IMG/VR virus record: IMGVR_UViG_3300031578_000032
Coordinates: 1 to 59,581 of that record
Reading direction: 5' to 3' (one strand)
DNA from: a virus
Taxonomy: Duplodnaviria; Caudoviricetes
Length of the DNA stretch: 59,581 nt
A program made the position numbers and the translations under genes. Below are positions 14,865 through 57,305 of the stretch, in pieces. Below the pieces are notes generated by a model that did no database searches, had not been told where the DNA came from, and saw only the letters and a program-made list of their open reading frames with translations. Every line of letters starts with the position of its first letter. The stretch's first letter is position 1.

Positions 14865-15319
14865 TTAATTCGTTTAAAAATCAACATAAATTTCTTTCAA
14901 ACTTTTATCAAGTTTCAATAAATTTTGAAGGAATTATATATCCAACAGTTGAACATGTATACCAAGCAGCAAAATCATTTGATACTATATATAGAGATAA
15001 GATATCAAGCATTCCGTGGTATAAACCTGGAACAGCTAAAATGTATGGGAACAAGGTTAAGATTCGACCAGATTGGGAAAAAGTTAAAGTAGATATTATG
15101 AAAAAGTTATTGTATAAAAAATTCATGTATCCAGATTTAAGTAACTTATTATTACAGACAGAGGATGATTATCTTGAAGAAGGTAATTTCTGGCATGACA
15201 ATTTCTGGGGAAATTGTAGATGTAAAAAATGCAAAGATATACCCGGTCAAAACATGTTAGGTAAATTATTAATGGATGTACGAGAAGAATTGAAGGAGGA
15301 TACAAATGGTAAAGATTGA
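14861..15319 (+). CDS. NADAR (YbiA-like) family protein
   Basis: FLSNFY, YPTVEHVYQAAK, RPDWEKVK, KKF, LEEGNFWHDNFWG, GQNMLGKLLMDVR. Confidence 0.92.
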   Translation: MINSFKNQHKFLSNFYQVSINFEGIIYPTVEHVYQAAKSFDTIYRDKISSIPWYKPGTAKMYGNKVKIRPDWEKVKVDIMKKLLYKKFMYPDLSNLLLQTEDDYLEEGNFWHDNFWGNCRCKKCKDIPGQNMLGKLLMDVREELKEDTNGKD

Positions 15320-16040
15320 AGTCCTCGGAGTGGGTAATTTGTTCACTCCACAAATAACAAACACCTCTTTTTTATTATCACCTGATATTGGTGGAGATGA
15401 AAAATTTCTTATTGATTGTGGTTATAACGTTTTTCAAAAATTAATTTCTGGTGGTTATGATATTGGAAACATAAAAACTGTAATCATTACTCATACTCAT
15501 CCAGATCATGTTGGTAGTTTGGGAGCATTAATTTATTACAGATGGTTTGTATTTAACAGACATACAACTATTATATGTGGAAATAAAGTTGGTAAATATC
15601 TAAAGGCATATTTAGAGTCAACAGTATTTTATGTTCTTAAACCAGGAGAGATTAGATTGGATAAATATATAGAATGCCCATATTCTCTTGTATCTAATGG
15701 TATACCCACTGGACTTATAACTATGTTTGAAGTTCAACATGGTGATATACCAGCATACGGAGTTTATTTACATAAAGATAAAATAGTTTTTACCGGCGAT
15801 ACAGATCTTTTAAACCCATTATCTACTATGATGTCTAGTGCTGAAATAATATTCCATGATTGTTTAATAGGCCATTTTGCAAGGGGTATTCATTCAAACA
15901 TGGGAGATATGGAAGTAACTTATCCTAAAATAATCAGGGAGAAGATTCAGTTGGTTCATTATGGAAAGAAACTTACACAGAAATTTCTTGATAATGATAT
16001 GACTATTTGTCATGAGGGATCTACTTATACTGTTAAATAA
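15306..16040 (+). CDS. MBL-fold metallo-hydrolase, Apyc1-like cyclic nucleotide phosphodiesterase
   Basis: LGVGNLF..NTS, LIDCG, THTHPDH, FTGDT, IFHDC, IHS, LVHYG. Confidence 0.75.
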   Translation: MVKIEVLGVGNLFTPQITNTSFLLSPDIGGDEKFLIDCGYNVFQKLISGGYDIGNIKTVIITHTHPDHVGSLGALIYYRWFVFNRHTTIICGNKVGKYLKAYLESTVFYVLKPGEIRLDKYIECPYSLVSNGIPTGLITMFEVQHGDIPAYGVYLHKDKIVFTGDTDLLNPLSTMMSSAEIIFHDCLIGHFARGIHSNMGDMEVTYPKIIREKIQLVHYGKKLTQKFLDNDMTICHEGSTYTVK

Positions 16041-20050: not shown

Positions 20051-20887
20051 ATGAAAATATACATTGATCATTTATTAAAAATAGGAAAGACTCATAAAGT
20101 ATGTGAGGATTATATTATTTCAGGTCATACCCCAGTCCCTTATATTATTTTATCGGATGGATGTTCTAGTTCTAAAGACACTGATGTTGGGGCTAGAATT
20201 CTATGTTATAGAGCTAAACAATATTTACAACGGAATGGATCTCTTGATTCTGTAAATGAATCTGAAATGGGCGATTATATTATTTGGTCTTCTAAATTAG
20301 CTATAGACCTTCTTGGATTAGATGTAACTGCTTTAGATGCGACTTTAACGATTGCCTATTACGTCAATGGAATATTAAAAATTATTATGTATGGCGATGG
20401 AAATATAGTTTATATTGATAACAATAAAGATAGTATATCAATTGAAATTAATTATACTAAAAATACTCCATATTATTTATCATATGAATTAGATCAAAAA
20501 AGAAAACAAATATATCAGGATAACAACATTAAAAAAACAATTGGGGGCTATTGTTATTATTCAGATATAAATAAAGTAAAAAGTGGAACAACCGGGATAA
20601 TAAAATGTGACAAACCATATATTTCTACTTATATAATTGAACCTAATACAGATCAAACTATTTTAATTTTCTCTGATGGGATTTCAACCTTTTTTAATAA
20701 AGAACAACAAGAATTCTTGCCTATAAAGGATCTTATACAAGATTTTTCATCTTTCAAAACTTTAAAAGGGGAGTTCTTACAAAGAAGGTTATTAAGTAAA
20801 AATGGTGCTATAACTAAGTTAGAACAACAAGGTTATGATCACTTTGATGATTTATCAGTTGGAGCTTTTGTTATTCGATGCAACTAA
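20051..20887 (+). CDS. PP2C-family protein phosphatase (TerY-P type)
   Basis: GKTHKVCED, LSDGCSS, ATL, GDG, FSDG, DDLS. Confidence 0.88.
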   Translation: MKIYIDHLLKIGKTHKVCEDYIISGHTPVPYIILSDGCSSSKDTDVGARILCYRAKQYLQRNGSLDSVNESEMGDYIIWSSKLAIDLLGLDVTALDATLTIAYYVNGILKIIMYGDGNIVYIDNNKDSISIEINYTKNTPYYLSYELDQKRKQIYQDNNIKKTIGGYCYYSDINKVKSGTTGIIKCDKPYISTYIIEPNTDQTILIFSDGISTFFNKEQQEFLPIKDLIQDFSSFKTLKGEFLQRRLLSKNGAITKLEQQGYDHFDDLSVGAFVIRCN

Positions 20888-21082: not shown

Positions 21083-21289
21083 ATGCCATACTATAAATGT
21101 AGCGGATGCCACCATGAGTGGGAAGATTCTCAAGAACGAAAATGTGATTGGTGTGATACAAAAAACCCAATAGTTCTTGAAGAAAAAACTCCGTTAGAGA
21201 AATTTGTAAAAATACTTTTAAAAGATCCAGTCGGATTCTTTAAAGGAATAGGGGATAATAAAGATGTATCACATACGAGGAAAAAATAA
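21083..21289 (+). CDS. small zinc-ribbon protein
   Basis: MPYYKCSGCHHEWE...CDWC; AAGGAG RBS. Confidence 0.55.
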   Translation: MPYYKCSGCHHEWEDSQERKCDWCDTKNPIVLEEKTPLEKFVKILLKDPVGFFKGIGDNKDVSHTRKK

Positions 21290-22952
21290 AAAAGTTAAAT
21301 TTACACAGAACAACTTTATAGCAAAAGGTGGTGAAGGAAGTGTTTATAGAATAGGTAATGTTGTATATAAAATTTATGAAGACTCCTCTAAAATGATTCC
21401 CGAAGCCAAAATTAAAGAACTTAATAATATCAGCGATAGTAACATCATCAAACCTATTGATATTATTTTAGACCCATCTAATAAAGTTGTTGGTTTTACA
21501 ATGAGATATGTAAAAGGTGAACCTTTATGTAAACTATTCACAACTGCTTTTAGAGACAGAAATAATATATCTGATGATATGACTCTTGAACTGGTTGAAA
21601 ACATTAAAGATTCTACCTATAATATTCATTCAAATAAGTGTTTGATTGTGGATGGAAATGAATTAAATTATATGGTTGATAAATCATTTGTTGTTCCATT
21701 TTTCATTGATGTTAATAGTTGGCAAACTCCAAGTTTTCCAGCTACAGCAATTATGTCATCAGTTAGAGACTGGAATGTAAATACATTTTCTGAAATAACA
21801 GATTGGTTCTCATTTGCTATAGTTACATTCCAGTTGTTTGTAGGAATTCATCCATATAAAGGAAAACATGATAAGTATAAAAAGAATGATTTTCAAAAAA
21901 GAGTTGTAGACTGTGTTTCTGTATTTAATAAGAATGTTGGGGTTCCACCTGCAGCAAGGAGTTTTGATTTAATTCCTAACCATTATAAAGATTGGTATTA
22001 TAATCTATTTGAAAAAGGTAAGAGAAATGAACCACCAACTAAACCTGGTGTACGAAGTCCAATTACTACCAGACATATTATTATTAACAGTACAGATAAT
22101 TTTGTAATCAAAGAAATTCATGAGTTTAATTCTGAAATTATTTATTATGATGTAGTATATGGAGTTGAAGTCATTAAAACAAAAAATACCTTATACATTA
22201 ATAATAAAAAATATACAGTAGCACCAAACGTTGAAGTTTTATTTACAACTCAAAATTTAAATCCAATATTTGTTAAAATTGAATCTGGTCAATTGAAGTA
22301 TTTTTCTCCGGACTCTATCAAAATAAATTACTCTAAATTAAACTGTTCAGATAAAATGATTTATAAAAATTCTTTGTTTATAAAAAATGAGGGAAAATTA
22401 ATTGAAATATCTCTCAAGGAAATGAATAAACAAATATTTCCAACAGTAAAACATACATGGGGAATACTTCCGTATGCTAGTGAAATGTTTAGTGGGTGTG
22501 TTTCTCAAAGTGTATTTGGAAGACAGTTCTTTGTTATTATAGAACCAAATTCATCAGGAAATTCTGAATCATATGTTATTAAAGTTGATGATTTAGATGG
22601 TTATCGAGTTATTGATGCTAAATATGAATCCAATGTTTTAATTGCCACAACTTATAAAGATAGTCAATATGATAGGTTTATTATTAAACTTGATCTAAAA
22701 AATAATAAGTACACTTATAGAAAAGAAGAAGGTATTGATTTTATACCTGCTAATTTTATAGTGCTTGACAATGGAATTGTTATAAATATAAATGATCAAG
22801 ATTCCGTTCAGATATTTTCTAATATATACGGAAAAGATGCAGTTAAGGAAATTAAAGATCCTGCAATAGATTCATCAATGAAATTGGTCAAAGATGGAAC
22901 ACAAGCAAAATTTTTCAAAGGTAATAAATTATTTACAATAAAAACAAAATGA
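21264..22952 (+). CDS. Ser/Thr protein kinase-like protein (TerY-P type)
   Basis: GGEGSVY, VYKIY, IVDGNELN, IDVNSWQ, DWFSFA...GIHPYKG. Confidence 0.85.
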   Translation: MYHIRGKNKKVKFTQNNFIAKGGEGSVYRIGNVVYKIYEDSSKMIPEAKIKELNNISDSNIIKPIDIILDPSNKVVGFTMRYVKGEPLCKLFTTAFRDRNNISDDMTLELVENIKDSTYNIHSNKCLIVDGNELNYMVDKSFVVPFFIDVNSWQTPSFPATAIMSSVRDWNVNTFSEITDWFSFAIVTFQLFVGIHPYKGKHDKYKKNDFQKRVVDCVSVFNKNVGVPPAARSFDLIPNHYKDWYYNLFEKGKRNEPPTKPGVRSPITTRHIIINSTDNFVIKEIHEFNSEIIYYDVVYGVEVIKTKNTLYINNKKYTVAPNVEVLFTTQNLNPIFVKIESGQLKYFSPDSIKINYSKLNCSDKMIYKNSLFIKNEGKLIEISLKEMNKQIFPTVKHTWGILPYASEMFSGCVSQSVFGRQFFVIIEPNSSGNSESYVIKVDDLDGYRVIDAKYESNVLIATTYKDSQYDRFIIKLDLKNNKYTYRKEEGIDFIPANFIVLDNGIVININDQDSVQIFSNIYGKDAVKEIKDPAIDSSMKLVKDGTQAKFFKGNKLFTIKTK

Positions 22953-24217: not shown

Positions 24218-25372
24218 ATGTCAAATGTGAAAGTATTACCAATGCTCTTTGGAGTAAGTAGAGTAGGAAAAGTAAAACAATGGCAACCAAAAGTTGAAGA
24301 ACAGGAAAACGGAACAGCAATTATTATAATTGATTCAGGATATGTTGGGGGAAAGATTCGAGAAAGTCCTAAGGTGATTAAGAAAGGAAAGAATATTGGC
24401 AAATCAAATGAAACAACTCCATATACTCAAGCTCTATCAGAAATTGAATCTGCATGGACTGCCAAGCGATATGAAAATTATGAACCTGATCAAATGGATC
24501 CTAATAATTATATACCAAGATATATGCTTCCTCAATTAGCTAAAGGCCCTGGTGCTGGAAAGATTGTATATCCAGCATTTATTGAACCCAAATTAAATGG
24601 AGTTTGTAACTTAGCAGAACCTCCTATGGTTCCGCCTTATTATTCTCCATCACGAGATTTAATTCTTCATCATACAAAGGGTGGACACTTTTTTGAAACC
24701 CTTGCTCATCTTGATGAATGGGTACATAAATTTAATGCTCCAGCACCACTTCATGGAGAATTATACAAACATGGGTGGAGTCTTCAAAAAATTGGTGCAT
24801 ATACCAAGAAAATAAAACCAGATCAACATCTATTGGAATATTGGTTATATGATATTGCTTGGGTAAATGTTCCTTTCATAACGAGAATTGAATGGCTTGA
24901 AGAAAGAATTCATTTGATAACAAAGAACTTCCCAGAATGCCCCATCAAATTCACTCCAACAGAGATAGTTAATAATTACGCTGAAGCAAAAATTTATCAT
25001 GATAGATGTGTGGTAAATGGTTTTGAAGGAGCTATGTTAAAAAATAAACATGGTATGTATATGTTTCAGTACAGATCAAATGAAATTGAAAAAGTTAAAG
25101 ATTATAAAACAGAGGAATTTGAAATTGTTGGTGGAAAAGAAGGAAGTGGAACTGATGAAGGCTGTATCGTATATAGATGTATAACCGAAGGTGGTCTTGA
25201 GTTTGATGCTCGACCAAGAGGTACGGTAGAGGATCGTCAAGAGATGTTTATAAACCTTCCAAATGATATTGGTAAAATGTTAACCGTAAGATTTGCTGAA
25301 TTTTCTGACGACGGAGTTCCTCTTCAACCAGTTGGGATTCCTGAAGCAGAAGTAATAAGAGATTATGAATGA
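24218..25372 (+). CDS. ATP-dependent DNA ligase
   Basis: EPKLNGV (motif I variant), HGELY, EGAMLK, KVKDY, OB-fold LTVRF...GVP. Confidence 0.88.
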   Translation: MSNVKVLPMLFGVSRVGKVKQWQPKVEEQENGTAIIIIDSGYVGGKIRESPKVIKKGKNIGKSNETTPYTQALSEIESAWTAKRYENYEPDQMDPNNYIPRYMLPQLAKGPGAGKIVYPAFIEPKLNGVCNLAEPPMVPPYYSPSRDLILHHTKGGHFFETLAHLDEWVHKFNAPAPLHGELYKHGWSLQKIGAYTKKIKPDQHLLEYWLYDIAWVNVPFITRIEWLEERIHLITKNFPECPIKFTPTEIVNNYAEAKIYHDRCVVNGFEGAMLKNKHGMYMFQYRSNEIEKVKDYKTEEFEIVGGKEGSGTDEGCIVYRCITEGGLEFDARPRGTVEDRQEMFINLPNDIGKMLTVRFAEFSDDGVPLQPVGIPEAEVIRDYE

Positions 25373-29951: not shown

Positions 29952-31070
29952 TTGGCTGAATTAAAAGTTGAAGTTTGTAAAATTGATGATATTAGAGACC
30001 ATCCTAATGCAGACAAATTAGAACTTGCATACATTGGTGGAAAAAATGGATGGCAATCATGTGTAAGAATTGGGGAGTTTAAAGTGGGTCAAAAGGTGGT
30101 TTATATTCCAGTTGATTCTCTGCTCCCCATGGATGTCGAAAAAATCTTATTTGGGGAAGATTCTAAAATAACCCTAACAAAATCACGAGTTCGTTCTATT
30201 AAAATCAGAGGAGCTATCTCCCAAGGAATGATCGTATCATTAGAAGGTTTGGGTTTAAATCCTCATTTAAAAATAGGAACTGATATAGCAGAAAAATTAG
30301 GAATAGAAAAATATACACCCCCTGAAAAAGGACAACCTTCTCAAATGCAGGCAGTAAAACACCGTCATAAAAATCCCAACTTTAAAAAATATACTGAAAT
30401 TAATCATTTTAAATATTATTCAAATGCTCTAGATGATTTAGAAATAGTAGTAACTGAAAAAATACACGGAACAAATTTTAGGGCTGGATATGTTAAGTTT
30501 AATGCTTATAATCTATGGACTAAATTCCTTAGTTTTATTGGTAAGCTATTTAATAAATGGCAATATGAATTTGCATACGGAAGTCATAATATTCAACTAA
30601 CAAATAAAGGTAAGAAAAATAAAACCTTTTATGGAAAAAATGTCTATTATAAAATAGCTGAACAATATAACTTAAAAAATATACTTAAAGATAATGAAGT
30701 ACTTTATGCTGAAATATATGGGCATGGAATACAAAAAGGTTATACATATGGTTGTAAACAAGATGAACATAAAATGGCAGTTATAGATATAATGATTAAT
30801 GGCAAATATCTTAACCATGCAGATGCAGAATCATTTTGTATGGAAAGAGGATTGCCATATATGAAAGTTTTATATATTGGTAAATATAATTATGAAATTG
30901 TAAATAAATTAGCAAATTCTGAACATTCCTTTGTAGACCCAAAAACAAAACCCATAGAAGGAGTAGTTATAAAACCTGTTATAGAAACTAAAGGATATAT
31001 GGGAAGAATGATATTCAAATGGATTGGTGATAAATATTGGTTAAACAAAGGAAATAGTGATTGGAAATAA
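29952..31070 (+). CDS. RNA ligase (Rnl2/DRB0094 family, N-terminal OB fold)
   Basis: HPNADKLELA, IRGAISQG, TEKIHGTN, YAEIYG, EGVVIK. Confidence 0.92.
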   Translation: MAELKVEVCKIDDIRDHPNADKLELAYIGGKNGWQSCVRIGEFKVGQKVVYIPVDSLLPMDVEKILFGEDSKITLTKSRVRSIKIRGAISQGMIVSLEGLGLNPHLKIGTDIAEKLGIEKYTPPEKGQPSQMQAVKHRHKNPNFKKYTEINHFKYYSNALDDLEIVVTEKIHGTNFRAGYVKFNAYNLWTKFLSFIGKLFNKWQYEFAYGSHNIQLTNKGKKNKTFYGKNVYYKIAEQYNLKNILKDNEVLYAEIYGHGIQKGYTYGCKQDEHKMAVIDIMINGKYLNHADAESFCMERGLPYMKVLYIGKYNYEIVNKLANSEHSFVDPKTKPIEGVVIKPVIETKGYMGRMIFKWIGDKYWLNKGNSDWK

Positions 31071-36470: not shown

Positions 36471-37922
36471 TTATGCACCGATTGTCAAAGCAGCTATGCC
36501 ACTGGATCTGACAAGCGCAGTTGCGTACCGACTTAAGATTGTCAGACTTGGTGTATAACCAAGTGGATACGGATGTAAAACCGCTGGAACATAAGGTGAG
36601 TAAAAGTAAACAGCCTTTAATTCTTCCATTGGTTTGAAGACCATTAACATAGTACCTTGTGGAACTACAGCACTAGTTAGCACTCTCCATTTTCCACCAG
36701 CAACTGTCGCTGATCTGTAACCTAAGTCACCGTCAACTGAAGAAGTTCCAACATAATTAAATGTTTGTAGATCTTCAAGAATAGCAACATCAAGTGGATT
36801 AGCTAAAATAGTGTTTCCAGCATCAATGTTAGTATCTGTATAAATTGTACCAGACAATTCATTCAGTGGAACGATGATATTTTCATGCCAATACTTAGTT
36901 CCCCAAGTATACGTATCAGGCGGGGTTCTATTAAATGTCTTAGTATGTGTAGCACCATTTAATCTTGTATTAGCTGTAATCAGAGCATTAATTATCTCTC
37001 TGTCAATATCCAGAGCAACTTGCTGACCCAAAATATTTACGATTTCTGCTTGAATTGAAACATCAAATAGAGCTCTCATATCTTGCTCCATATTGACTGA
37101 CCAATTAGCAGAGATTTGACGATCTCTAGCATATAGACGAATTTTGTCTACACTTAAAGTAACAGAAGGATTGATTCTATTTTCTTCCAGAGATGTAGTG
37201 ACTTGATACTTAACATAAACTGCAACACCAGTTGTGTTAGAAATTGCAAGAGTACCGTTTAAGTAATCAACCATACCTGAAACAACGTCTGAATTTGCAC
37301 CTATTGTTATACTTGAACTAAAATGTCCTTCAACAGCTGGAACGATTGAAACGCTTGTCCATGCTGTACCATCTGTAGAAACAGCTGTAATCTCAAAGTC
37401 TCTTTCTAAATGAGCTTGAGCTGATGTTAAACTAGCAACAGCAAGAACATCTAGAGCACTTTGTGGAACAGATGTAGTAGCTGTAACCGGAGTACCAATT
37501 CCAACACCTTGAGAAATATCAGGTGTAGTAACAGGCGCATTATACTGTATTGAGCTGTTTGATGGAGAAAATGTAGCTTTAATAAATGCTTTTACACTTT
37601 CTGGTTTATCCATTGGTGAAACTGTAATTGCTTCTTTAGCAACCAGTTTAGGATAGAACACTCTTAAAATAGGCAGTGTTAAACTTTCATAAGGATTAAT
37701 CTGAAACATTGAATTTTCTAAAAGATTAATTCTTGTGTTTTCTGCCAGTTGTGTAAATGTTTTACGATCTTTTTTATCCTCGATTGATTCCGCTAACCCA
37801 GTAACGTATGCATTAAAAGCTGCGTCGTCGATAAGTACTGCTTTCATATTGCCAGGTTTTGAAGGATCAATTCCGGATAACTTTTTAGTAGTCCGATAGA
37901 CTTCTGTTAGTAATTCTTTCAT
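36471..37922 (-). CDS. major capsid protein (T4 gp23-like)
   Basis: LPILRVFYPKLVAKEAITVSPM, ARDRQISANWSVNMEQD, VALDIDREII, YFYSPYVP, LSRYA; GGAGG RBS. Confidence 0.9.
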   Translation of the reverse strand: MKELLTEVYRTTKKLSGIDPSKPGNMKAVLIDDAAFNAYVTGLAESIEDKKDRKTFTQLAENTRINLLENSMFQINPYESLTLPILRVFYPKLVAKEAITVSPMDKPESVKAFIKATFSPSNSSIQYNAPVTTPDISQGVGIGTPVTATTSVPQSALDVLAVASLTSAQAHLERDFEITAVSTDGTAWTSVSIVPAVEGHFSSSITIGANSDVVSGMVDYLNGTLAISNTTGVAVYVKYQVTTSLEENRINPSVTLSVDKIRLYARDRQISANWSVNMEQDMRALFDVSIQAEIVNILGQQVALDIDREIINALITANTRLNGATHTKTFNRTPPDTYTWGTKYWHENIIVPLNELSGTIYTDTNIDAGNTILANPLDVAILEDLQTFNYVGTSSVDGDLGYRSATVAGGKWRVLTSAVVPQGTMLMVFKPMEELKAVYFYSPYVPAVLHPYPLGYTPSLTILSRYATALVRSSGIAALTIGA

Positions 37923-45408: not shown

Positions 45409-46896
45409 TCAAATTTCACAGCCAGGAAAACTCATTGGAGCATTTTGTGTTGAATCTGCCTTCCTAACATTAACCAATAAATTAGCATTAAGAAACTTAA
45501 ATTTATCAAATGCTACTTGAAAATTAATTGACACTCCGCTCTTACCACTACGGTTTTTACCAACTTTTCCATAAACAATTGTGTCATCTGTTTGATCTTT
45601 TGCCATTAACATAACAAAATCTGCATGCTCTACTTTTTTAATTGATTCCGACATTTGATCTACATTTAATTGACTTGCTTCTTGTATTCTGTATGCAGCT
45701 CTTCCTAATTGTGAAGCTGTAACCACAGGGATATTATATTGTACTGCTAAAGTTTTCAATGATAAAGTAATATGCCCTAATTCTAATCTATACATATCAT
45801 ATCCTGTATCTGCTTTTAACAGATCTAAATAATCAACATACAACCCAGCAATAGCTTCTTTACCATAATCGTTTATTGCATCATCAACAACCCCCATTAA
45901 ATCAACTACACTAATACTCATTGCTGGAAAATATTTCATAATAATTGTTGAGCCACAGTTGGTAAATTTATTAACTATTTTTTTCTTAAATTCTTCAATA
46001 TTAAAATTTTCCCTTGTAAGTTCTCGTAACATTTGAGGTGTTGTTTTATTAAACATTGGTTGATAAGTTCTAATTAAAGCTTCTTCAATTGTATTTTCCA
46101 TGGTTACATAAACATAAACCTTGTTTATTTCATTTGGTTTTATTATTGGTTTATTAGGATCTATTAATGTTGCTGATTTATAAATTGTATTATTTAACAT
46201 TGTTGATTTACCAGCTCCAGATCCTCCACCAAAAACATATAATCTGGATGGTTCATACCCACCAAGCATTATATTATTATCAAAAATTGGAAATCCAGTT
46301 GGAGTTGTATTTTGTCTTTCATATTTTTTCTTAATCATTTCAACAACATGACTATAATCATCCTTGACTAAATCTAGCGATGCTGATGCTTCAATAGTAA
46401 CTGATCTATTACTTTCCATTAAATTTGAATATAGTTTCTTTATAGTTACTTCATAATCTTCAACCATATTATCAATAGAATCAAATGACCCCTCTTTAAT
46501 TGAATCCAGCACATCACTTAATTCATCATAATTTTGGAATAGAGCATTAATCTTTTTTCTTAATCTAATTTGATTAATAATATCTTGGAATGCATGATCT
46601 TTAATATTTTCATTAACCTTCAAGTCTATAAAACCAACATGCTGCCTGAACTTTTCTCCAATCATAATACTATCTATTGCATTCTCAACAATTTTATCCT
46701 TTAGAAACATTCCACATAATTGTTTTAATAACTCTAACTTATTCTGAACTTCTACCGGAACATCAAATGACTTTTGTCCCTCACTGAACTTCAATACATC
46801 CAAAATATCTCTGTATAATGCTTTTACCTTTCTAATTTTAGAATTTTTATTCAGAAGTAAGATAAAACATGAATTAAGAAATGAATCAGTAATCAT
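45409..46896 (-). CDS. replicative DNA helicase (DnaB/T4 gp41-like)
   Basis: GGSGAGKS Walker A, YVTMEN, VDYLDLL, TASQLGR, KNRSG. Confidence 0.92.
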   Translation of the reverse strand: MITDSFLNSCFILLLNKNSKIRKVKALYRDILDVLKFSEGQKSFDVPVEVQNKLELLKQLCGMFLKDKIVENAIDSIMIGEKFRQHVGFIDLKVNENIKDHAFQDIINQIRLRKKINALFQNYDELSDVLDSIKEGSFDSIDNMVEDYEVTIKKLYSNLMESNRSVTIEASASLDLVKDDYSHVVEMIKKKYERQNTTPTGFPIFDNNIMLGGYEPSRLYVFGGGSGAGKSTMLNNTIYKSATLIDPNKPIIKPNEINKVYVYVTMENTIEEALIRTYQPMFNKTTPQMLRELTRENFNIEEFKKKIVNKFTNCGSTIIMKYFPAMSISVVDLMGVVDDAINDYGKEAIAGLYVDYLDLLKADTGYDMYRLELGHITLSLKTLAVQYNIPVVTASQLGRAAYRIQEASQLNVDQMSESIKKVEHADFVMLMAKDQTDDTIVYGKVGKNRSGKSGVSINFQVAFDKFKFLNANLLVNVRKADSTQNAPMSFPGCEI

Positions 46897-47212
46897 ATGG
46901 TCTCCCTATATAATGTCTTTTCATAGAATCTGGATGTGAAAGAGATTCTAATATTTCTTTATCTATTTGTTTTGCTACTTCTCGTGTCATTTCTTCCATA
47001 AGTTTGCCCTGAAAATCTATCTCAAAACTATTAGATGTTTCACTCATACTTGTCTGACTAAACGATACTTTAAAAAACCTTGGTTTTATACTTCCCATGG
47101 CATTAGTCACCCAATCAAGTTTTCCTTTTCCCATACATTTTGGGCATAGATTTTTAATATATCCTATATCATTACATTTGTCGCATATTACTTCACCATC
47201 ATTTAGTATCAT
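46886..47212 (-). CDS. DnaJ-type zinc finger fused to a major-capsid-like fragment
   Basis: GEVICDKC...CPKCMGKGKLDWV; tail aligns ungapped with the MCP in this window. Confidence 0.7.
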   Translation of the reverse strand: MILNDGEVICDKCNDIGYIKNLCPKCMGKGKLDWVTNAMGSIKPRFFKVSFSQTSMSETSNSFEIDFQGKLMEEMTREVAKQIDKEILESLSHPDSMKRHYIGRPYDY

Positions 47213-47658
47213 TTGTCAGCCACCACATTCATAATTTTTTGTCTCCATGATATTTTTTCTTTATAAGGAATTGTTTTAATTTTAGGTAATTGACGTATAT
47301 TTACTTTAGACTTTTGTTTAAGAGACTTTCCACCAGGTATGCTTTTTGGTGAAGAGGGTGGGAGTGTATTGATAAAATAAAATGGGATGTAAAGTTTTGC
47401 ATGACCACTACTACCACCAACAATATGTGCTGATGATGAATTCAGTCCATTAGTTCCAGACATCCCAGCGCCAGTCGCATTAGTTATCCAATCAAGTTTT
47501 CCTTTACCTAAACAATGATAACATCGAGAAACTTTATTATCTTCACAATCATAAAAATATCCCCAACCATTACAGACCTCACATATACAATCACCATCTT
47601 TAAAATCTTCAAATTTCTTTATATCAGTTTTTCTGTAATAAACGGCCTCTTTGTTCAT
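47209..47658 (-). CDS. DnaJ-type zinc finger paralogue with a G/S-rich tail
   Basis: CEVCNGWG...CYHCLGKGKLDWI; GMSGTNG..SSS..GGSSG. Confidence 0.65.
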   Translation of the reverse strand: MNKEAVYYRKTDIKKFEDFKDGDCICEVCNGWGYFYDCEDNKVSRCYHCLGKGKLDWITNATGAGMSGTNGLNSSSAHIVGGSSGHAKLYIPFYFINTLPPSSPKSIPGGKSLKQKSKVNIRQLPKIKTIPYKEKISWRQKIMNVVADK

Positions 47659-49040
47659 ATTTTTAATAACTCCGTTTCATGATTTAAATTAATAAATTCA
47701 TCCTTATCTAAAAACCTTTTAACTAAATCTTCACAATAATTTTCATCTAATTGTACTAACATATCCAATGATCTTGCAACCATAGCAGCTTTCTTTACAC
47801 CCTTTTTTGTCATTTTACCACTATTTAAATCTCTTGTTAATGTTGCACATTGGATTTCAAATTCGCCTTTTTCACCCGACTTATATAACGGATAAATTTC
47901 ATCTGCAAGTTTTCTAGATCGTTCTTGAATTTCTGCCCATTGCCATAACATATATAGCATTGAATATACTTTTACATCTTCATAAAATGTTCCAGTCTTT
48001 GGATCATAAACTTCACCAACTTTAATCTTTTTGAAATTCATTTTATCTGAAAATTCATCTAGAATTATTTGTAACTGTTCATAAACCCTAACATATTTAC
48101 TAAACATGTTATTTAGATTTGGAGTCCTCAAATCCATTTTTTGAAGATGACCATCTGGGTGGTCAACCCATAAATATCTTCCAATCATTAAAGACTTAAA
48201 TAAACCAGACGAGTCATAAGTGATGTTTAATTTTATATTATGTTTTTCTAATACAACTTTCCTAAATAATTCATAAAAAGTTACATCTCGAAAATTTGCT
48301 CCACCTAAAATATGAAAGTTCAAAAAATCTCTTCCATATCTTTTAGCTTCATTCAATAAAGGAATTATTGGTAGAACATATATAATACAAGGAATAACCA
48401 TATCTGAAGACATGTTTGCTACAATACCACCTGTACCATGATATTGAAATGAGTTAAACATATTATCTTCTCGAAGTATTTTTGTGTAAAGTTTCCATAA
48501 TTCTGGTGTTCTAAAATGATGTATATAAATTATTTTTTTTCTAATATCATCGGGAAGTTCTTTAGCCCGATTATATGATTCTAAGTTTAGTTCATACACA
48601 TCTTTAAATGTTTTAAATATTTCACAATTTGGACCAGGCGGAATATCTAAAATAAATGCTCGTTCTATAACTTGATGGTGATTTTCAATCCACTCATAAT
48701 ACATTTTACCAAGTAAATTAGATTCCTCTCTAGTTAATCTACCAACAGATATTTGAAATCCTCCTGAGTCTACTATCAAATCTGATGAATTGAAAAACCC
48801 CCAACTTCGACATTTGTTATATACATTTTCTTCATTTTTATTATAGTTTTTATATCTTTTTTTACCAGCAAAATTTTGACCATATGAATGAAGGAATCCA
48901 GAGCAGATTTCCCCAAGAAAATCAGAAATTTGATCCCTCGTAAAGTTGTCATAAAATCGATCTTTTTTACCTAACATATAATTATTTAATATAGAAGCAA
49001 GACTTTCAAATCCTGCCAAAATGTAACCAGATTTAACCAT
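47655..49040 (-). CDS. TGT/DpdA-like base-exchange transglycosylase
   Basis: LIVDSGGFQ, ILDIP, GTGG, FHILGG, TYDSS pattern of the TGT fold; QueE nearby. Confidence 0.7.
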   Translation of the reverse strand: MVKSGYILAGFESLASILNNYMLGKKDRFYDNFTRDQISDFLGEICSGFLHSYGQNFAGKKRYKNYNKNEENVYNKCRSWGFFNSSDLIVDSGGFQISVGRLTREESNLLGKMYYEWIENHHQVIERAFILDIPPGPNCEIFKTFKDVYELNLESYNRAKELPDDIRKKIIYIHHFRTPELWKLYTKILREDNMFNSFQYHGTGGIVANMSSDMVIPCIIYVLPIIPLLNEAKRYGRDFLNFHILGGANFRDVTFYELFRKVVLEKHNIKLNITYDSSGLFKSLMIGRYLWVDHPDGHLQKMDLRTPNLNNMFSKYVRVYEQLQIILDEFSDKMNFKKIKVGEVYDPKTGTFYEDVKVYSMLYMLWQWAEIQERSRKLADEIYPLYKSGEKGEFEIQCATLTRDLNSGKMTKKGVKKAAMVARSLDMLVQLDENYCEDLVKRFLDKDEFINLNHETELLKI

Positions 49041-49057
49041 TTATTCACCTCATTCAT

Positions 49058-49076
49058 ATTTTTAATTTTGTTCCAA
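49058..49076 (-). promoter_or_regulatory. motif A upstream of the DpdA-like gene
   Basis: TGGAACAAAATTAAAAA. Confidence 0.55.
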
Positions 49077-49092
49077 ATTCATTTATTATCAT

Positions 49093-49488
49093 CTATTTTA
49101 TAGTAAAATTTAAAGCAATAGTATAAGTGGTGTTAACCGGTTTAATATTAATATTAATATACTTATTTATACAACTTGATTTAACTTCATAATCAATAAT
49201 TACTTTATTTACCTGTAAAGATTCTAAATGTTCTTTCATTTTTTTATTAAAAATATATATATTATTAAAATCTTCACTACAAGCTATCTGTTTAATAGAT
49301 GAAATAAATTCTCTGACGTCTATACGTTCTAAAATTGACCTTTTTTTACTTTTTATTACAGCATTAGAAATCCAGTCAATCTTTCCAATACCATCACATT
49401 TTCCACATATATAAATATCATTTGTATCGTGGGTAGTTCCTTTACAAACAGGACATATCATTTCACCTTCTTCTAATTTAAGATTCAT
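49093..49488 (-). CDS. DnaJ-type zinc finger fused to a tail-sheath C-terminal-like domain
   Basis: GEMICPVC...CGKCDGIGKIDWI; SILERIDVRE...IK, IIDYEV, INIKPV...IALNFTIK. Confidence 0.7.
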   Translation of the reverse strand: MNLKLEEGEMICPVCKGTTHDTNDIYICGKCDGIGKIDWISNAVIKSKKRSILERIDVREFISSIKQIACSEDFNNIYIFNKKMKEHLESLQVNKVIIDYEVKSSCINKYININIKPVNTTYTIALNFTIK

Positions 49489-49501
49489 TTTTCACTATTC
49501 C

Positions 49502-49744
49502 TCATCTAAAATCATGGGTTGTATTGAAAGTATTTCTTTTGCCATTAACTTTGGATATACTGTTTTTCATAACAAATACAGACCTTGGAGGAGCTTTTCC
49601 AACACATGCCTCAATCCAATCAAGTTTTCCAGCACCCCAACATTTCATACAAACAGTAACGGACTCACCAAAACTTTTAGATTTTCCATGACAATTATCA
49701 CAAATTATTTCACCTTCTTCTAATTTAATATCTTTCATTCTCAA
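49502..49744 (-). CDS. DnaJ-type zinc finger paralogue with a short tail
   Basis: GEIICDNC...CMKCWGAGKLDWI. Confidence 0.65.
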   Translation of the reverse strand: MRMKDIKLEEGEIICDNCHGKSKSFGESVTVCMKCWGAGKLDWIEACVGKAPPRSVFVMKNSISKVNGKRNTFNTTHDFR

Positions 49745-50262
49745 AATTCCTTAATTACATATGGAGGTCCAGTTGCCATATCATATGTAGTTGATGCCTT
49801 TAAAGCTGCCATTATTCGTCTTTTAGAATTACTCCATGTTCTTGTTGTCCATAATGATCCAAGTGCATAAGGAGCACCAGAACCAATCGCTACAAAGTCT
49901 TTAAGCTCATTCATTTGAAAATCAGTTAAAATCTCAAATAATTTTCCATTAGGTGTAGCTATTAAAAAATTTGATGATTGTATAGAAGTTTGGTCTTCTG
50001 GATTTACAGCTAAACAGCCCTTAATTTCTAACTGTTCCCTTATCTTATCAGGAAATTCAAAAATATCTTTAGGGGGATTAAAATACTCTGATCTAATTAC
50101 TTGTCCTGTTCTGATGACTCCAACATGTCCAATAAGATAAGGATGATTATAAAACATTTTTTTATTTATTATACGTCTTCTTTCTCCCTCTGCAGTAGTA
50201 GCATAACTATCAGCTCCCATCCACACTTTTCCGTTATCAATAATCCCAACAATAGTAGACAT
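49741..50262 (-). CDS. Ntn-hydrolase (HslV/proteasome beta-like) peptidase
   Basis: MSTIVG...MGADS, K, AIGSGAPYALG. Confidence 0.8.
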   Translation of the reverse strand: MSTIVGIIDNGKVWMGADSYATTAEGERRRIINKKMFYNHPYLIGHVGVIRTGQVIRSEYFNPPKDIFEFPDKIREQLEIKGCLAVNPEDQTSIQSSNFLIATPNGKLFEILTDFQMNELKDFVAIGSGAPYALGSLWTTRTWSNSKRRIMAALKASTTYDMATGPPYVIKEF

Positions 50263-52345: not shown

Positions 52346-53083
52346 TTATTTTTTGTTCTTAATTTCATCCACTATATCTTTATCTTCTTCATCTTTATAA
52401 ATAACTCTTTTATGATAAATACTTTCAAGTTCTTTAGTTAATATTCTTTTAATTTGTTTAATAGCACCATGTAATATTTTGTCCAACTGGTCATCATCAT
52501 CCAGTCTCTCAATAGTTGATTGAATAATTCGTTTTATAAATACTCCATTTTCTTCATCATCTTTTCTTTGTATAATCATTGCTCGAGATGTTGCTTCTAC
52601 TGAATCCACAATCATCAAAACAATTGATTCCATTGAAGTTGGTTTTCTACCCTTGTAACGAAAAAGATCTTCCGGAGATTCTTCTTCTTTTTTATGAAAT
52701 TGTCTTAAAAGAGTATCACCATGATGTTCACTAATAATCTTTATAACTTCAATTGGAAAATCGTTTTGTAAAAGAATCAAAACCCCATCAGAGACATGTC
52801 TTGTAATTAAATGATAAGATACATTTGGTTCAATATCATCATGTATATTTGTTTTTGCAGGTTGATTTTCAGAAAAATTCAACGGATAATTCATCTTTCC
52901 AATATCATGGTATAAACCACAACATCTCATGAGATCTACATCAAGTTCTAATTCAATAGCAATCGACTCACAAATGTTAGCAACATTTTGTGAATGTTTA
53001 TAAGAACCTGGCGCTATTTCTCTATACTTTTCGAGTAAAGGAAAAGTAGGATCAATATATTTTTTATATTTGTCATTGCTCAT
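52346..53083 (-). CDS. stand-alone HDIG/HD domain protein, PgpH-like phosphodiesterase
   Basis: APGSYKHS, YHDIGK, FSENQ, HDD..P..S...I..HV.DG, EHHG, FRYKG.KP, DSVEA. Confidence 0.82.
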   Translation of the reverse strand: MSNDKYKKYIDPTFPLLEKYREIAPGSYKHSQNVANICESIAIELELDVDLMRCCGLYHDIGKMNYPLNFSENQPAKTNIHDDIEPNVSYHLITRHVSDGVLILLQNDFPIEVIKIISEHHGDTLLRQFHKKEEESPEDLFRYKGRKPTSMESIVLMIVDSVEATSRAMIIQRKDDEENGVFIKRIIQSTIERLDDDDQLDKILHGAIKQIKRILTKELESIYHKRVIYKDEEDKDIVDEIKNKK

Positions 53084-56000
53084 TATATTGTTATAACCTC
53101 CATGTTTTGTTTAGAATCTATTAATGGTTTTAACATTAATTCATGACGATCTTCAAAGCAGAATTTTAAATTGCCTTTTACATCTGGAAAAAAGTATGTT
53201 GGAAGTCGAGCTTCTTCATCCGGTATAGCTATAACTTCAAGTTTTCCATGTTCAGCAACAAATTTGTCATATTTCTTAACTACATCTGGTGGTGCAGTCA
53301 TTGTATCAATTCCATTTACTCTATACATATATCCTTTAGTTCCTGTATTATGAATATCATACATGATATTGTTCCATGCCTGCATAGCTTTTACACCCTG
53401 TGGAACTAATTTATAATCTTTAATTTTCTTTCCCCATGATACTGGTCTGGCGATTGATTTATCTCCTTTTTTTATTAAATTAATAAATTCTGATTTCTCT
53501 GTATTAATAAACTTTAATAGTTGTGGTAAAGATACTTTTTCAGTTTTTAGAATTAAATCAATTAGCTGTGATAAAAATTCTTTTGATTTACTTGGGTAAT
53601 CTGATCTTTTAATTTCAACTCCCATATATTCAACTTTATTAATATCTTTTCCCTCTTTATTAATAACTCTAATTGCATATCGTTTTTTAGCTAAAAATAA
53701 ACCTCGTGAAATAACCAACTCATTTTTTAAATTTAACCCATTACAATCTAAAGGAACATTATGTCTTTTTACAATACTAGTCATAATATCATTATTAAGA
53801 AAACTTTGAATACTCTCACACCAAGTTTGAATTTGACTAACTGTTTTTTCACCAGAAAAGTTTTGAAAACAACAGAAAATTGAATCAGTATCTCCTGTAA
53901 TAATATACTCATGACTTCTGTTTAACATTTCTTTTTCATACATTTCTTTTTTAGATATTTCTAATGGTTTAACATAAGCTTTTCCTGTATCAAGATATCT
54001 CATATAAGCATCACCTTCAACAATAGATGCCTTTAAAGCTTCCTGTCCACTTAATGTTACTGCTGCTGCTAATGATAAATCAAAAAATCTAAATGATTTA
54101 TTAGCAACAACTCCATATAATGTATTAGCTAAAACCTTATATACTAACTGCCTAGTATAATAAAAAAATTCTGATGTTTTATCTTTTTCTTCAATTGAAT
54201 CAAACATTTTATCTTTGTAGCCTTTTCTAGTTGACATTAGTCCACCAACTACATCACTAAAAACAGAAACTTCTTTATCATGTGCCTTAAAGAAACAACC
54301 ATTAATTGTATAAACCAAATTCTGTTCCTTAATTTTCTTTAATAGTTGAACTGATGTTATTATAACTTCTTTTTTAGCATATGTTGGATCTATTATAACT
54401 TTGATTTTTTCTGGTAAATTTTCAGGATGATATGTCAAGTCATATCCCAATAATGGATCATCAAATTTCATAACAAAGTTATTTATTCCAATGTTATAAG
54501 TCATAATAATCTTTGGATATAGAGATTCAAAGTCAAAATCTGTAATGTCATTATAAATTCCAGGAATTGGATCAAATACAAAAGCTCCAGCATATTTCTT
54601 TTTCTTAATATACATATCTGCATTTTTAGATGCCCAACCCTTATTCTTAAGATGATTAACCATTAAAGAATCAATCTGTGAAAATGATGAAATACCCTCA
54701 AAACTTGTTTTACAAACAATCCTTAGTTCATTTATTAAATTAATATGTTGAAGTTTATCTTCTAGTTCTTTAATAATTTCTGTATCTCTAATATTATAAT
54801 CAATTGATAAGTTTAACATTTTCCAATACATTTCGTTCATTGGTAATGGTAATTGAATTTTTGTTTTTCCTAATTCATGTTGTGCTATAAATCCAAGTTT
54901 GTAGTTTTCCATTTTAGTAAATGTAAATGTTCTATACATAAACTCTTGATCTATAGCAATACACCCAGCTAGTTTACAAAAATATTTTGGACCATCAACA
55001 TAGAATTCATTAAACAGACTCAGGCTTCTTTGAACAATTTTTAATTTTGGTAAACGATTAAATATATAACTAAGATCAAAATTAATAGAATTCCACCCTG
55101 CGATATAATCAGGATCTTCATCTTTAAAATCTTTAATAAATTCTTTCATCATTGTATATTCGCTTTTAAAGATTTTTAACTCAAACCCTTTCTTTTCAGT
55201 AATCAGTTCTGTTTTATTATCTACAACATAGCTTATTTGTCTTTTATTATAAATACTTGAAATCTCATTAATTGGAAATGCAGCATCTATTGCATGTGGA
55301 AATCCCCTATATTTTCCCGTATCAATCTCAATGTCAAAAAATTTAATATTATTCTCTGTCTTTTTAGCTTCTCCTTTACTAAAATGATAATAGTCCATTG
55401 CATGTTTTATAGTAATTTTAACATCACCTTCATATGTTATATCAGGATCTAACACAGACTGATCTCTAAAAGCAACACACACTTGATCTAGTTCATCATA
55501 CGGAACAATTTTTCTTGTTTCTAAACCAGGAGGAGCTTGATAGCAAATATAATCATCATTTTCTGTATGATATATTTTCTTATTATTAGAATCTCTAAAA
55601 ATATATAAAACCTTTTTCTGTGTACTAAGATATTGAACATCAATTAATCTATAATTTTCTGTATAAAATTTTTCGGGTATTTTATATCTGTAAATACCTT
55701 TCTTATCCAGCTTTTGTACTTCACTACTTGTCTTAATGTTAATTTTTTCCCCTTCCATCATTTCTGAAATTTTTGCCATATCTTCTTCAAATTTTGGTAA
55801 CCATACTTTTTGATTTCTATTAACAAATGATGGATGAACTGTTAAAAAAATATTATAGTTTTTCCATTTAAAAATATTTCCGTGAATTTTAGTAATACCT
55901 GATTTAGCAATATCAAATGCTTTCATTGGACTTGTACCTAATAATACAACTAATTTGGGATTACAAACTTCTATTAAATTCATACAGTTAACTTTACATT

Positions 56001-56316
56001 TTTCAATTACATCATCAGTTGGATTGCCTGTAGTTCCATCTGGATTAATTGTTTGACATAAAACTACATTAGTAATTAAATATTTAAGTTTATTTAATTT
56101 GAATTGCTTAAAAAATTTACGAAAAGTTTGCCCACTACGCCCAATTAAAGGACATGGTGGGTTAGCTTCACACTCTACTTTTCCTGGATTTTCAGCTATA
56201 AAAATTACATCAACTTGACTTAGATCCTTTTCACAATTAGTTTCAAGAATACAGGAAGGGGAATCTAATAGTTCACATTCCAAACAATTTGCAAAAGATT
56301 TTTTTATTGAATTCAT
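53083..56316 (-). CDS. family B DNA polymerase with an N-terminal family-4 uracil-DNA glycosylase domain
   Basis: UDG: CLEC, AENPG, GRSG, TNVVLC, HPS; exonuclease DIEID, WNSINFD, YNIRD; polymerase DFESLYP, KVLANTLYG, GDTDS, KKRY. Confidence 0.92.
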   Translation of the reverse strand: MNSIKKSFANCLECELLDSPSCILETNCEKDLSQVDVIFIAENPGKVECEANPPCPLIGRSGQTFRKFFKQFKLNKLKYLITNVVLCQTINPDGTTGNPTDDVIEKCKVNCMNLIEVCNPKLVVLLGTSPMKAFDIAKSGITKIHGNIFKWKNYNIFLTVHPSFVNRNQKVWLPKFEEDMAKISEMMEGEKINIKTSSEVQKLDKKGIYRYKIPEKFYTENYRLIDVQYLSTQKKVLYIFRDSNNKKIYHTENDDYICYQAPPGLETRKIVPYDELDQVCVAFRDQSVLDPDITYEGDVKITIKHAMDYYHFSKGEAKKTENNIKFFDIEIDTGKYRGFPHAIDAAFPINEISSIYNKRQISYVVDNKTELITEKKGFELKIFKSEYTMMKEFIKDFKDEDPDYIAGWNSINFDLSYIFNRLPKLKIVQRSLSLFNEFYVDGPKYFCKLAGCIAIDQEFMYRTFTFTKMENYKLGFIAQHELGKTKIQLPLPMNEMYWKMLNLSIDYNIRDTEIIKELEDKLQHINLINELRIVCKTSFEGISSFSQIDSLMVNHLKNKGWASKNADMYIKKKKYAGAFVFDPIPGIYNDITDFDFESLYPKIIMTYNIGINNFVMKFDDPLLGYDLTYHPENLPEKIKVIIDPTYAKKEVIITSVQLLKKIKEQNLVYTINGCFFKAHDKEVSVFSDVVGGLMSTRKGYKDKMFDSIEEKDKTSEFFYYTRQLVYKVLANTLYGVVANKSFRFFDLSLAAAVTLSGQEALKASIVEGDAYMRYLDTGKAYVKPLEISKKEMYEKEMLNRSHEYIITGDTDSIFCCFQNFSGEKTVSQIQTWCESIQSFLNNDIMTSIVKRHNVPLDCNGLNLKNELVISRGLFLAKKRYAIRVINKEGKDINKVEYMGVEIKRSDYPSKSKEFLSQLIDLILKTEKVSLPQLLKFINTEKSEFINLIKKGDKSIARPVSWGKKIKDYKLVPQGVKAMQAWNNIMYDIHNTGTKGYMYRVNGIDTMTAPPDVVKKYDKFVAEHGKLEVIAIPDEEARLPTYFFPDVKGNLKFCFEDRHELMLKPLIDSKQNMEVITI

Positions 56317-56513: not shown

Positions 56514-57305
56514 ATGCAAACAAACATTACTTATCAAAAAGCAATAGACATCTTACAATTGAATAAACAAAACATTACAATTCCGCATACATTAATCAAT
56601 TTCAGGTCTATGATTGCAAATGATGAATTAACAGATTATTCGGAGTCCAGTTTAATAGAAGCCAAAAATATCATACTCCGTTCATGGATCGAAGAACAAC
56701 TTCAAAAACAAGGTCATTGGGAGTTAAAGTCTCCTTACAAAGATGAATGTAAAAGGTGTAATGGTACTGGCGAAATCTATAAATTAGAGAAAGAGAAAAA
56801 ACCATGTCATGCATGTAATGGTGATGGTTACTTATGGGTTAAATGTAGAAATTGCGAAGGTACAGGCAGATTTATAAGAGATGATAAAAAGGCCAAAGGT
56901 CTTATAATAAATGTTGAATGTAATTGTACCAAATTTGCCAACCATTATGGCGATAAATACAAAGGTAAAATTCGAGTTCGGTGCCGAGAATGTCTTGGAA
57001 AAGGAAATATTGAAAATTTGAAAAATTCCAAGGAATGGAAAAATAAGAATTTTAGATATACAGGAAAAATTTATACCACTACTAAATGCCCAAACTGTTA
57101 TGGTTTTGGTTTTCCTGTTACACCAAGAGGTCATTTGAATCCAGTTTTATCAAACCGCCTTGTACAAATCATCAATACTGAAGACACTGTTCATGTGGAT
57201 CCTCTTAGTTTGGATCCTTTGTATGTTATACATAGAATACCAATAAGAACTACTCATTCTGTGATAGATTCTTCGATGCTTAAAATTGCTAGAGAATCCA
57301 TTTAA
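56514..57305 (+). CDS. DnaJ-like zinc-finger (CxxCxGxG repeat) protein lacking HPD
   Basis: CKRCNGTG, CHACNGDG, CRNCEGTG, CRECLGKG, CPNCYGFG. Confidence 0.7.
   Translation: MQTNITYQKAIDILQLNKQNITIPHTLINFRSMIANDELTDYSESSLIEAKNIILRSWIEEQLQKQGHWELKSPYKDECKRCNGTGEIYKLEKEKKPCHACNGDGYLWVKCRNCEGTGRFIRDDKKAKGLIINVECNCTKFANHYGDKYKGKIRVRCRECLGKGNIENLKNSKEWKNKNFRYTGKIYTTTKCPNCYGFGFPVTPRGHLNPVLSNRLVQIINTEDTVHVDPLSLDPLYVIHRIPIRTTHSVIDSSMLKIARESI

Follow-up and report, generated by a model that had tools for sequence, protein, structure and literature searches.

A linear viral contig of 59,581 bp and about 30% G+C (IMG/VR record IMGVR_UViG_3300031578_000032), analysed over its whole length and called the window below, carries four small genes, P0001 to P0004, each of which joins the same type of N-terminal zinc-finger module to a tail of its own. 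The window amounts to about 19% of a jumbo T4-like genome as estimated by CheckV, and a T4-type portal is encoded in it (Pfam Portal_T4, 8.3e-24). From the comparisons given below, the four genes are members of a large phage-borne multigene family, many of whose tails resemble pieces from the major capsid protein (MCP) or from the tail sheath. The four open reading frames (ORFs) that an initial annotation, made from the letters of the window, had reported are all present on the minus strand, the fourth of them running from 49502 to 49744 when it is counted from its TTG codon.

46886-47212, minus strand: P0001, 108 aa (from the ORF list); module, disordered Ser/Thr-rich linker and long helix; C1 (MCP-like) tail class
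47093-47212, minus strand: module of P0001, residues 1-40, CxxC...CxxCxGxGKLDW
46937-47026, minus strand: residues 63-92 of P0001, the stretch aligning with MCP residues 286-314
47209-47658, minus strand: P0002, 149 aa; module at residues 16-63, tail rich in Gly, Ser and Thr, then Pro-rich and basic
49093-49488, minus strand: P0003, 131 aa; module at residues 1-45 and a sheath C-terminal/gp25-like domain; C3 tail class
49096-49344, minus strand: residues 49-131 of P0003, two helices and three strands in the AlphaFold2 (AF2) model
49502-49738, minus strand: P0004, 78 aa from the ATG at 49738 (80 aa if begun at the TTG at 49744); module and 37-aa tail

The ATG at 49738 is more likely to be the start of P0004 than 49744, and a database protein, P0022, corresponds to the 78-aa form.

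About 45 aa at the N-terminus make up the module common to the four proteins, in which 11 positions do not vary (these are G, I, then C four times, G twice, K, D and W). It is a compact finger of the DnaJ/Anti-TRAP type, with a single zinc centre, and ends in GK(L/I)DW as a turn or helix; a flexible linker and the variable tail come after it. A six-frame regular-expression scan of the window found G.GK[LIVM]DW in these four ORFs and in no others. The shared module described in the initial annotation is borne out. Each protein has two Cys pairs, the second of which is always CxxCxGxG, while the first takes this full form only in P0002. Against PF00684 the four proteins score 14.6-19.2 bits, under the gathering cut-off of 32.7 bits, and against the Anti-TRAP family PF15777, P0001 and P0004 reach 21.3 and 17.9 bits, both under the cut-off of 32 bits. 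A Pfam scan at E <= 10 found no J domain in any of them. The solved folds nearest to the model of P0001 are Anti-TRAP (probability 0.84-0.93, E 0.25, template modelling score 0.53-0.56 depending on the target) and BSD2. The proteins P0003, P0005, P0015, P0018 and P0019, which are of the C1 and C3 types, carry a precomputed Pfam label, PF27659, which probably covers the shared module. Outside the module the four tails are mutually unalignable, the best tail-to-tail BLAST matches having E-values of 33-43, in agreement with the earlier description of them as unrelated. Elsewhere in the window, a 263-aa ORF at 56514-57305 on the plus strand has five CxxCxGxG motifs and scores 32.3 bits with DnaJ_CXXCXGXG, just below the cut-off of 32.7; it does not have the GK(L/I)DW ending and therefore lies outside the finger family.

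The tail of P0001 had been claimed to align with the capsid protein of the same phage, which is encoded in the window on the same strand.

36471-37922, minus strand: gp23-type MCP (phrog_20655, 1.4e-39; Pfam Gp23, 5.4e-33)
36975-37124, minus strand: MCP residues 267-316, the region that the C1 tail profile matches (E 1.3e-9)
37572-37712, minus strand: MCP residues 71-117, the Gol-region equivalent, matched by the C2 tail profile (E 1.1e-10)

Residues 63-91 of P0001 and 286-314 of this MCP are identical at 9 of 29 positions (pairwise E 3e-4), and none of 200 shuffles reached the score of the alignment. Such a pairwise match would be thin alone, because 86 ORFs and four tails were compared, and it becomes solid through the evidence from the family. 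A hidden Markov model (HMM) of the C1 class, built from 27 tails with the same motif that were chosen by eye, finds MCP 267-316 among the 86 ORFs of the window at the E-value given above, the next non-self ORF following at E 0.032, and it finds residues 268-316 of the MCP of a complete 277-kb relative, G003, at E 2.6e-9. Taken one by one, 24 of the 27 tails find their best local match within MCP 265-324, and 11 of the 27 have scores unreached by any of 200 shuffles. One member, P0073, is identical to the MCP at 23 of 46 positions and matches 1901 GenBank phage records by tblastn; among the matches listed, all 25 lie in its tail residues 58-117 and 17 of 25 are annotated as major head or capsid protein. 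Orthologs of P0001 with 47-58% identity retain the tail, and its invariant positions among them, A80, D84, E86, I87 and L88, align with MCP residues A303, D307, E309, I310 and I311, which are invariant as well. Taken together, these comparisons identify the P0001 tail as a diverged copy of a strand-plus-long-helix segment of the gp23-type capsid protein, and the MCP of the window as the parent of both the C1 and the C2 tail types.

The copied segment is short. The C1 tails span only about positions 168-195 of the 376-position Gp23 model (PF07068), and thus not an HK97-type fold. P0001 by itself gives no Pfam Gp23 match, and against the PDB the C1 profile reaches gp24 only at E 0.59. In the AF2 model of P0001, made with a 27-row alignment, the module has a predicted local distance difference test score (pLDDT) of about 90, linker residues 48-64 are below 50, and residues 67-92 form a helix. 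A match of P0001 to a 562-aa ORF at 21264-22952 (E 0.002) was rejected; that ORF is kinase-like rather than a sheath protein, and the C1 profile gives it E 0.97.

The tail of P0003 had been matched to the C-terminal domain of the sheath, and this holds for the class profile and for the predicted fold rather than for P0003 by itself, which has no Pfam, PHROG or tblastn match to a sheath. Its orthologs are 64-82% identical over the full length, and 19 more distant relatives occur among the 150 best module matches of the family search described below. The C3-class profile, A5, from a 24-row alignment, has its best PDB row at residues 545-643 of the 659 of T4 gp18 (E 1.8e-4), a C3 HMM restricted to the tails matches residues 558-659 of the G003 sheath at E 1.6e-12, and one member, P0044, matches tail-sheath PHROGs at 7.8e-11. 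By tblastn P0044 finds 2322 GenBank phage records, with a tail sheath annotation in 24 of 25 among the matches listed. The AF2 model of P0003 has a pLDDT of 78 overall and of 84-95 over residues 51-130. When its tail is compared with solved structures, Foldseek places T4 gp18 (3j2m) first (E 0.04, probability 1.00) and other sheaths next, and VIA gives Z-scores of 8.2 for T4 gp25, 7.8 for the phi812 sheath and 7.5 for the Lin1278 sheath; these scores are middling alone, since such values are common for unrelated folds, and are consistent with the sequence evidence. The P0003 tail is thus, by class profile and predicted fold, a diverged copy of the C-terminal domain of a sheath protein. P0003 is no full-length sheath subunit with N-terminal and middle domains, for only residues 49-131 of its 131 aa match, and the sheath of G003 is 660 aa long. 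This relative also has a separate 144-aa gp25 ORF and no C3-type finger gene, a search of the whole record with the C3/A5 profile returning the one sheath gene and module-only matches; therefore, P0003 is not the sheath initiator of the lineage. GPW_gp25 (PF04965) is absent from the best 25 of the 34 Pfam families matched by 148 family members, and nothing in the window matches it.

The remaining two tails had been likened, weakly, to fibre or baseplate motifs, and this likeness is not upheld. Matches of P0002 to the collagen-repeat ORF (BLAST E 0.046 and weaker) fall to E 1.0 when composition is corrected for, and its PHROG match covers the module only; its relatives P0026 and P0029 have a similar composition, and P0029 also shares the C-terminal motif. 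The 37-aa tail of P0004 matches nothing in the databases searched. In contigs from three other studies the finger genes are covered with no base changed, and one contig in each of these studies has an in-frame 15-nt deletion at 47368, in the tail of P0002. Separately, one contig from run X2 fuses the module of P0001 to that of P0004 (47147 to 49613, with 2465 bases skipped); only 21 letters fit on the shorter side of this junction, which may have arisen when paralogous modules recombined or may be an artefact of assembly.

The four modules were combined into a profile, which was searched against 1.84 billion proteins, represented by clusters at 50% identity, and it retrieved 1653 clusters at E <= 0.001, of which 104 were at E <= 1e-10. 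Most of the best 150 representatives are 47-165 aa long with the module at the N-terminus. The architecture of a constant finger and a changing tail extends across the family. This sample is biased toward modules like those of the window, and seeds match their own HMMs by construction. The tails of the 150 were assigned as follows.

C1, MCP helix segment: 22 representatives
C2, MCP residues 71-117: 4 representatives
C3, sheath C-terminal domain: 20 representatives
C7, sheath N-terminus: 6 representatives
C4, C6 and C8, recurrent, origin unverified: 29 representatives
no class: 69 representatives, including 5 unrelated long proteins and 12 with tails shorter than 20 aa

By these HMM classes, 52 of the 150 best matches have MCP- or sheath-like tails, and every supported class derives from a polymerising virion protein (MCP 267-316, MCP 71-117, the sheath C-terminal domain and the sheath N-terminus). 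The C2 profile matches residues 97-122 of T4 gp23 in the PDB at E of about 0.02; there is no C2-type gene in the window. The sole support for a sheath N-terminus as the source of C7 is a match of its profile to residues 4-19 of the G003 sheath (E 5.3e-6), and neither the PDB nor PHROG gave a sheath match for it. The classes C4, C6 and C8 had been considered fibre-type; all PHROGs that they match are of unknown function, no ORF of the window matches them, and they are therefore not counted as virion-derived. A feature search of the ESM Atlas returned low scores (0.75) to DUF2779 clusters, which were taken as chance.

Independent family databases agree with this picture. DnaJ_CXXCXGXG is matched at E <= 0.01 by 126 of 148 members (best 3.9e-10) and Anti-TRAP by 111 of 148. 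Beyond zinc or cysteine motifs and domains of unknown function, Gp23 (6 of 148, best 7.9e-11) and Phage_sheath_1C (PF17482; 4 of 148) are the only families with more than one member among the best 25 of 34 Pfam families. Five of the best 25 of 78 PHROG families are annotated; three of these are virion families, namely major head in 7 and in 4 of 148 members and the tail sheath phrog_10581 in 6 of 148 (best member match 9e-16), and the other two are an anti-termination Q-like and a DNA-binding protein family. Neither a portal nor a terminase family appears among these best 25 Pfam and best 25 PHROG families. The initial annotation had set in advance what would speak against it, namely tails without significant matches to virion proteins or a family without enrichment for them, and what this test returned was the recurrence of Gp23 and sheath families in both Pfam and PHROG. 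The architectural part of its wider proposal, a constant finger with swappable tails, is supported across the family, as are the many tails made of virion pieces; this does not extend to the tails of P0002 and P0004, for which there is no supported virion match. Immune decoys, dominant-negative inhibitors and assembly regulators, the functions that it proposed, are all candidates.

The genes tend to stand in arrays. A regular-expression search of 12 IMG/VR loci, of which three are near-identical, found 1-6 module-bearing ORFs in each, with at least two in 11 of the 12, usually in tandem. The complete relative G003, which has terminal repeats, is collinear with the window over the block of 36-57 kb; core proteins of the two are 43-59% identical and the MCPs 77%. 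It has seven module matches, five of them within 2.3 kb. The gene directly upstream of DnaB is of the C1 type in the window and likewise in L007, the syntenic locus of G003, and the finger array of L002 also ends with a C1-type gene. P0003 and P0004 have no counterpart at the same place in G003, where a different set of finger genes follows a 468-aa gene. The arrays thus turn over between relatives.

The genes next to the four are as follows.

45409-46896, minus strand: DnaB-like helicase (Pfam DnaB_C, 2.4e-18); its start overlaps the end of P0001
47655-49040, minus strand: 461-aa gene, weakly TGT/DpdA-like (phrog_887, E 1.2e-4), between the two pairs of finger genes
49741-50262, minus strand: HslV-family peptidase (phrog_1040, 9.1e-16); abuts P0004

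Along the minus strand the order is HslV-family peptidase, P0004, P0003, the 461-aa gene, P0002, P0001 and DnaB, and neighbours overlap or abut, which is why the finger genes are taken to form a single operon with genes for replication and nucleotide metabolism. The placement of two ORFs on each side of a DpdA-like gene was right as to position, while the likeness to DpdA is weak, for the product of the 461-aa gene has no Pfam match in addition to its marginal PHROG score. It is 45% identical to the 468-aa ORF of L007; a search for related loci with the 461-aa protein as the query returned no relative, and no match to the 5.7-kb region, to P0003 or to the 461-aa protein was found among GenBank phages. 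At E <= 1e-5, L007 lacks a counterpart of the HslV-like gene, though it keeps a finger array. Other genes of the window encode a thymidylate-synthase-like protein and radical-SAM and HD proteins, and a single 1077-aa ORF (53083-56316, minus strand), which has a counterpart at 50% identity in the 277-kb relative, joins a family-B DNA polymerase to an N-terminal domain of the uracil-DNA-glycosylase superfamily. The finger genes had also been said to lie outside the structural operon. They do overlap or abut replication genes; however, portal and head genes follow downstream on the same strand from 42924 on. Profile searches found no sheath gene in the window. Scans for promoters, terminators and TATAAATA gave counts at chance level (18 observed against 15.5 expected; 74 against 79.9), so that the timing of expression cannot be read from motifs.

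Several features elsewhere in the window are recorded here in their own right. Nine tandem ORFs of about 270-344 aa with the same direction occupy 464-8660 on the minus strand and look like a lineage-specific expansion; the one at 4105-5139 matches a radical-SAM PHROG (1.4e-11), and those at 464-1378 and 7818-8660 have no match. A 764-aa ORF of collagen triple-helix repeats (9642-11936, minus strand; Pfam Collagen, 2.6e-30) coincides with the most G+C-rich 2-kb bin (0.394). On the plus strand, an ORF with a metallo-beta-lactamase fold at 15306-16040 has a partial, sub-threshold match to anti-Pycsar Apyc1 (39.2 bits against a cut-off of 50) and is possibly an anti-defence gene. A PP2C-type phosphatase ORF at 20051-20887, also on the plus strand, is followed by two short ORFs and then by the 562-aa ORF mentioned above, whose protein-kinase match is sub-threshold. 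An ATP-dependent DNA ligase (24218-25372; PHROG, 3.9e-43) and an RNA ligase (29952-31070; PHROG, 1.5e-53) lie in the plus-strand block.

Among the known proteins of similar design is Anti-TRAP of Bacillus subtilis and B. licheniformis (PF15777), likewise a small protein in which a helix comes after a single DnaJ-type zinc centre; of the solved folds it ranks first for the P0001 model, with 35-38% identity over about 40 columns. The proteins of the window differ from it in their GK(L/I)DW motif, their long variable tails, their occurrence in phage arrays and the absence of a link to TRAP. With DnaJ (PF00684) the family has the CxxCxGxG zinc-finger chemistry in common, and E. coli DnaJ 1exk is matched by class profiles; however, there is one zinc centre instead of two, no J domain, and tails that are pieces of virion proteins. 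BSD2, another small protein with a DnaJ-type finger, has been solved with RbcL8 according to PDB titles. Anti-TRAP and BSD2 both work by attaching to the surface of an oligomeric partner; BSD2, an assembly chaperone, caps an assembly intermediate. On the side of the tails, the P0003 class is predicted to have the same two-helix, three-strand fold as the C-terminal domain of T4 gp18 and as T4 gp25, which its PDB entry names 'sheath polymerization initiator'; in P0003 this is a stand-alone domain of 83 residues on a zinc finger and not part of a 660-aa sheath. The C2 tails align with residues 97-122 of T4 gp23 and so with the Gol region, which we take to be residues 93-122, but they are carried on separate small zinc-finger proteins. 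According to a review, the Gol region consists of 29 residues that are the most conserved part of gp23, bind EF-Tu and activate the Lit protease, the short region alone being sufficient for Gol function (PMC3014915). The literature searched, supplements excluded, holds no description of such a family of zinc fingers with virion fragments.

The reading preferred here is that the tails are interface mimics which cap unassembled virion subunits; we put its probability at roughly 0.35, and both the binding and any effect on assembly are what we infer. The tail would take the surface that is normally contacted by its parent segment on unassembled capsid or sheath subunits, and a small protein of this sort would cap or hold the polymerising subunits and so control or block assembly. 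The finger would serve as a constant handle, for self-association or for a shared partner, and the target may be the subunits of the phage itself or those of a co-infecting relative; P0002 and P0004 would then carry the same handle, whatever the specificity of their tails. Interface mimicry is favoured because all supported tail classes come from polymerising virion proteins, because the nearest solved relatives of the finger, Anti-TRAP and BSD2, bind oligomer surfaces, and because the position of the C1 gene is conserved despite core proteins that are only 43-59% identical. The agreement of invariant positions between P0001 tails and the MCP, the lack of portal and terminase among the best-matched families, and the separate gp25 of G003 also count in its favour. 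A complex prediction with the MCP alignment and P0001 tail residues 41-108 scored 0.00, which gives no verdict and speaks neither for nor against binding. Several observations weigh against such mimicry. The repertoire differs between syntenic relatives, C3 being present in the window and not found in G003, which fits accessory genes better than dedicated chaperones. The finger genes overlap or abut genes for replication and nucleotide metabolism, not late genes. Across the 120 clusters listed, the identity of the MCP exceeds 80%, and a mimic of such conserved segments would hit the phage's own MCP too, so that self and rival would be hard to discriminate. In addition, the tails of two of the four proteins of the window, like those of 69 among the 150 best members, fall into no class.

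The main rival explanation is that the tails are immune decoys, imitating conserved virion epitopes that host sensors recognise, being made alongside the replication genes and occupying the sensors without activating them. This is possible, if doubtful; it fits the variable arrays, the gain and loss of genes between syntenic relatives and the operon shared with genes of a DNA-modification type, and it sits badly with the Gol class. Portal and terminase are well-known triggers of Avs, and yet neither is among the best-matched families named above; furthermore, the literature searched gave no precedent for decoys made of fragments. That the C2 class copies the Gol region, which triggers Lit via EF-Tu (PMC3014915), and that CapRel is reported to sense the MCP (PMC13728456) would speak for decoys; nevertheless, as a short Gol region by itself suffices for Gol function (PMC3014915), one would expect a free Gol-like tail to set off a Lit-type system and not to silence it. 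In its boldest form, which is a little less probable again, this explanation would have jumbo T4-like phages carry programmable zinc-finger cassettes with alternative copies of the best conserved, sensor-exposed parts of their own capsid, sheath and perhaps fibre proteins, produced ahead of the virion proteins as decoys that blind capsid- and tail-sensing immunity, including Lit-type systems.

Compared with decoys and with interface mimicry, it is unlikely that the tails are virion anchors which co-assemble with the parent protein, a sheath domain entering the sheath and fibre-type repeats entering fibres, while the finger rides on or in the particle as its cargo or as a decoration. The layout, one constant head and variable tails, does resemble anchor-plus-payload designs, the sheath-type tail is a complete small domain, and C4, C6 and C8 are further recurrent classes; but a lone MCP helix or Gol peptide presumably cannot stand in for a subunit of the capsid lattice, the C3 type was not found in the complete relative, and a fibre nature of C4 and C8 is unsupported by the searches. 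Less probable again, and purely conjectural, are specificity adaptors whose tail would bind the parent virion protein while the finger recruits a shared chaperone or enzyme, for example host DnaK or the adjacent HslV-family peptidase, for folding or degradation: the peptidase gene abutting P0004 and the DnaJ-like module point that way, against which stand the missing J domain and the finger array that L007 keeps without an HslV-like counterpart. Finally, it might be argued from the 9 of 29 identities between P0001 and its own MCP, and from P0003 having no sheath match alone, that the tails are chance similarities or functionless, decaying remnants of duplicated structural genes. Conservation largely refutes this very improbable view, since orthologs keep full-length tails at 47-82% identity, the profile E-values are 1e-9 to 1e-12, the thousands of tblastn matches are confined to the parent genes, and the contigs of three other studies keep the reading frame, with only the in-frame 15-nt indel.

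If interface mimicry is true, these genes would constitute a natural and diverse library of peptides and mini-domains that engage capsid, sheath or their sensors, and how capsid and sheath polymerisation is controlled, how phages compete and how bacteria sense virion proteins would become questions for simple co-expression tests. Through the Gol-region class the family is tied to a trigger of abortive infection that is among the oldest known, and decoy cassettes, if true, would be the first case in which a virus copies its own molecular patterns so that pattern recognition is defeated. With 1653 clusters in an abundant environmental phage lineage, annotating the family would therefore give a name to many genes now called 'hypothetical'.

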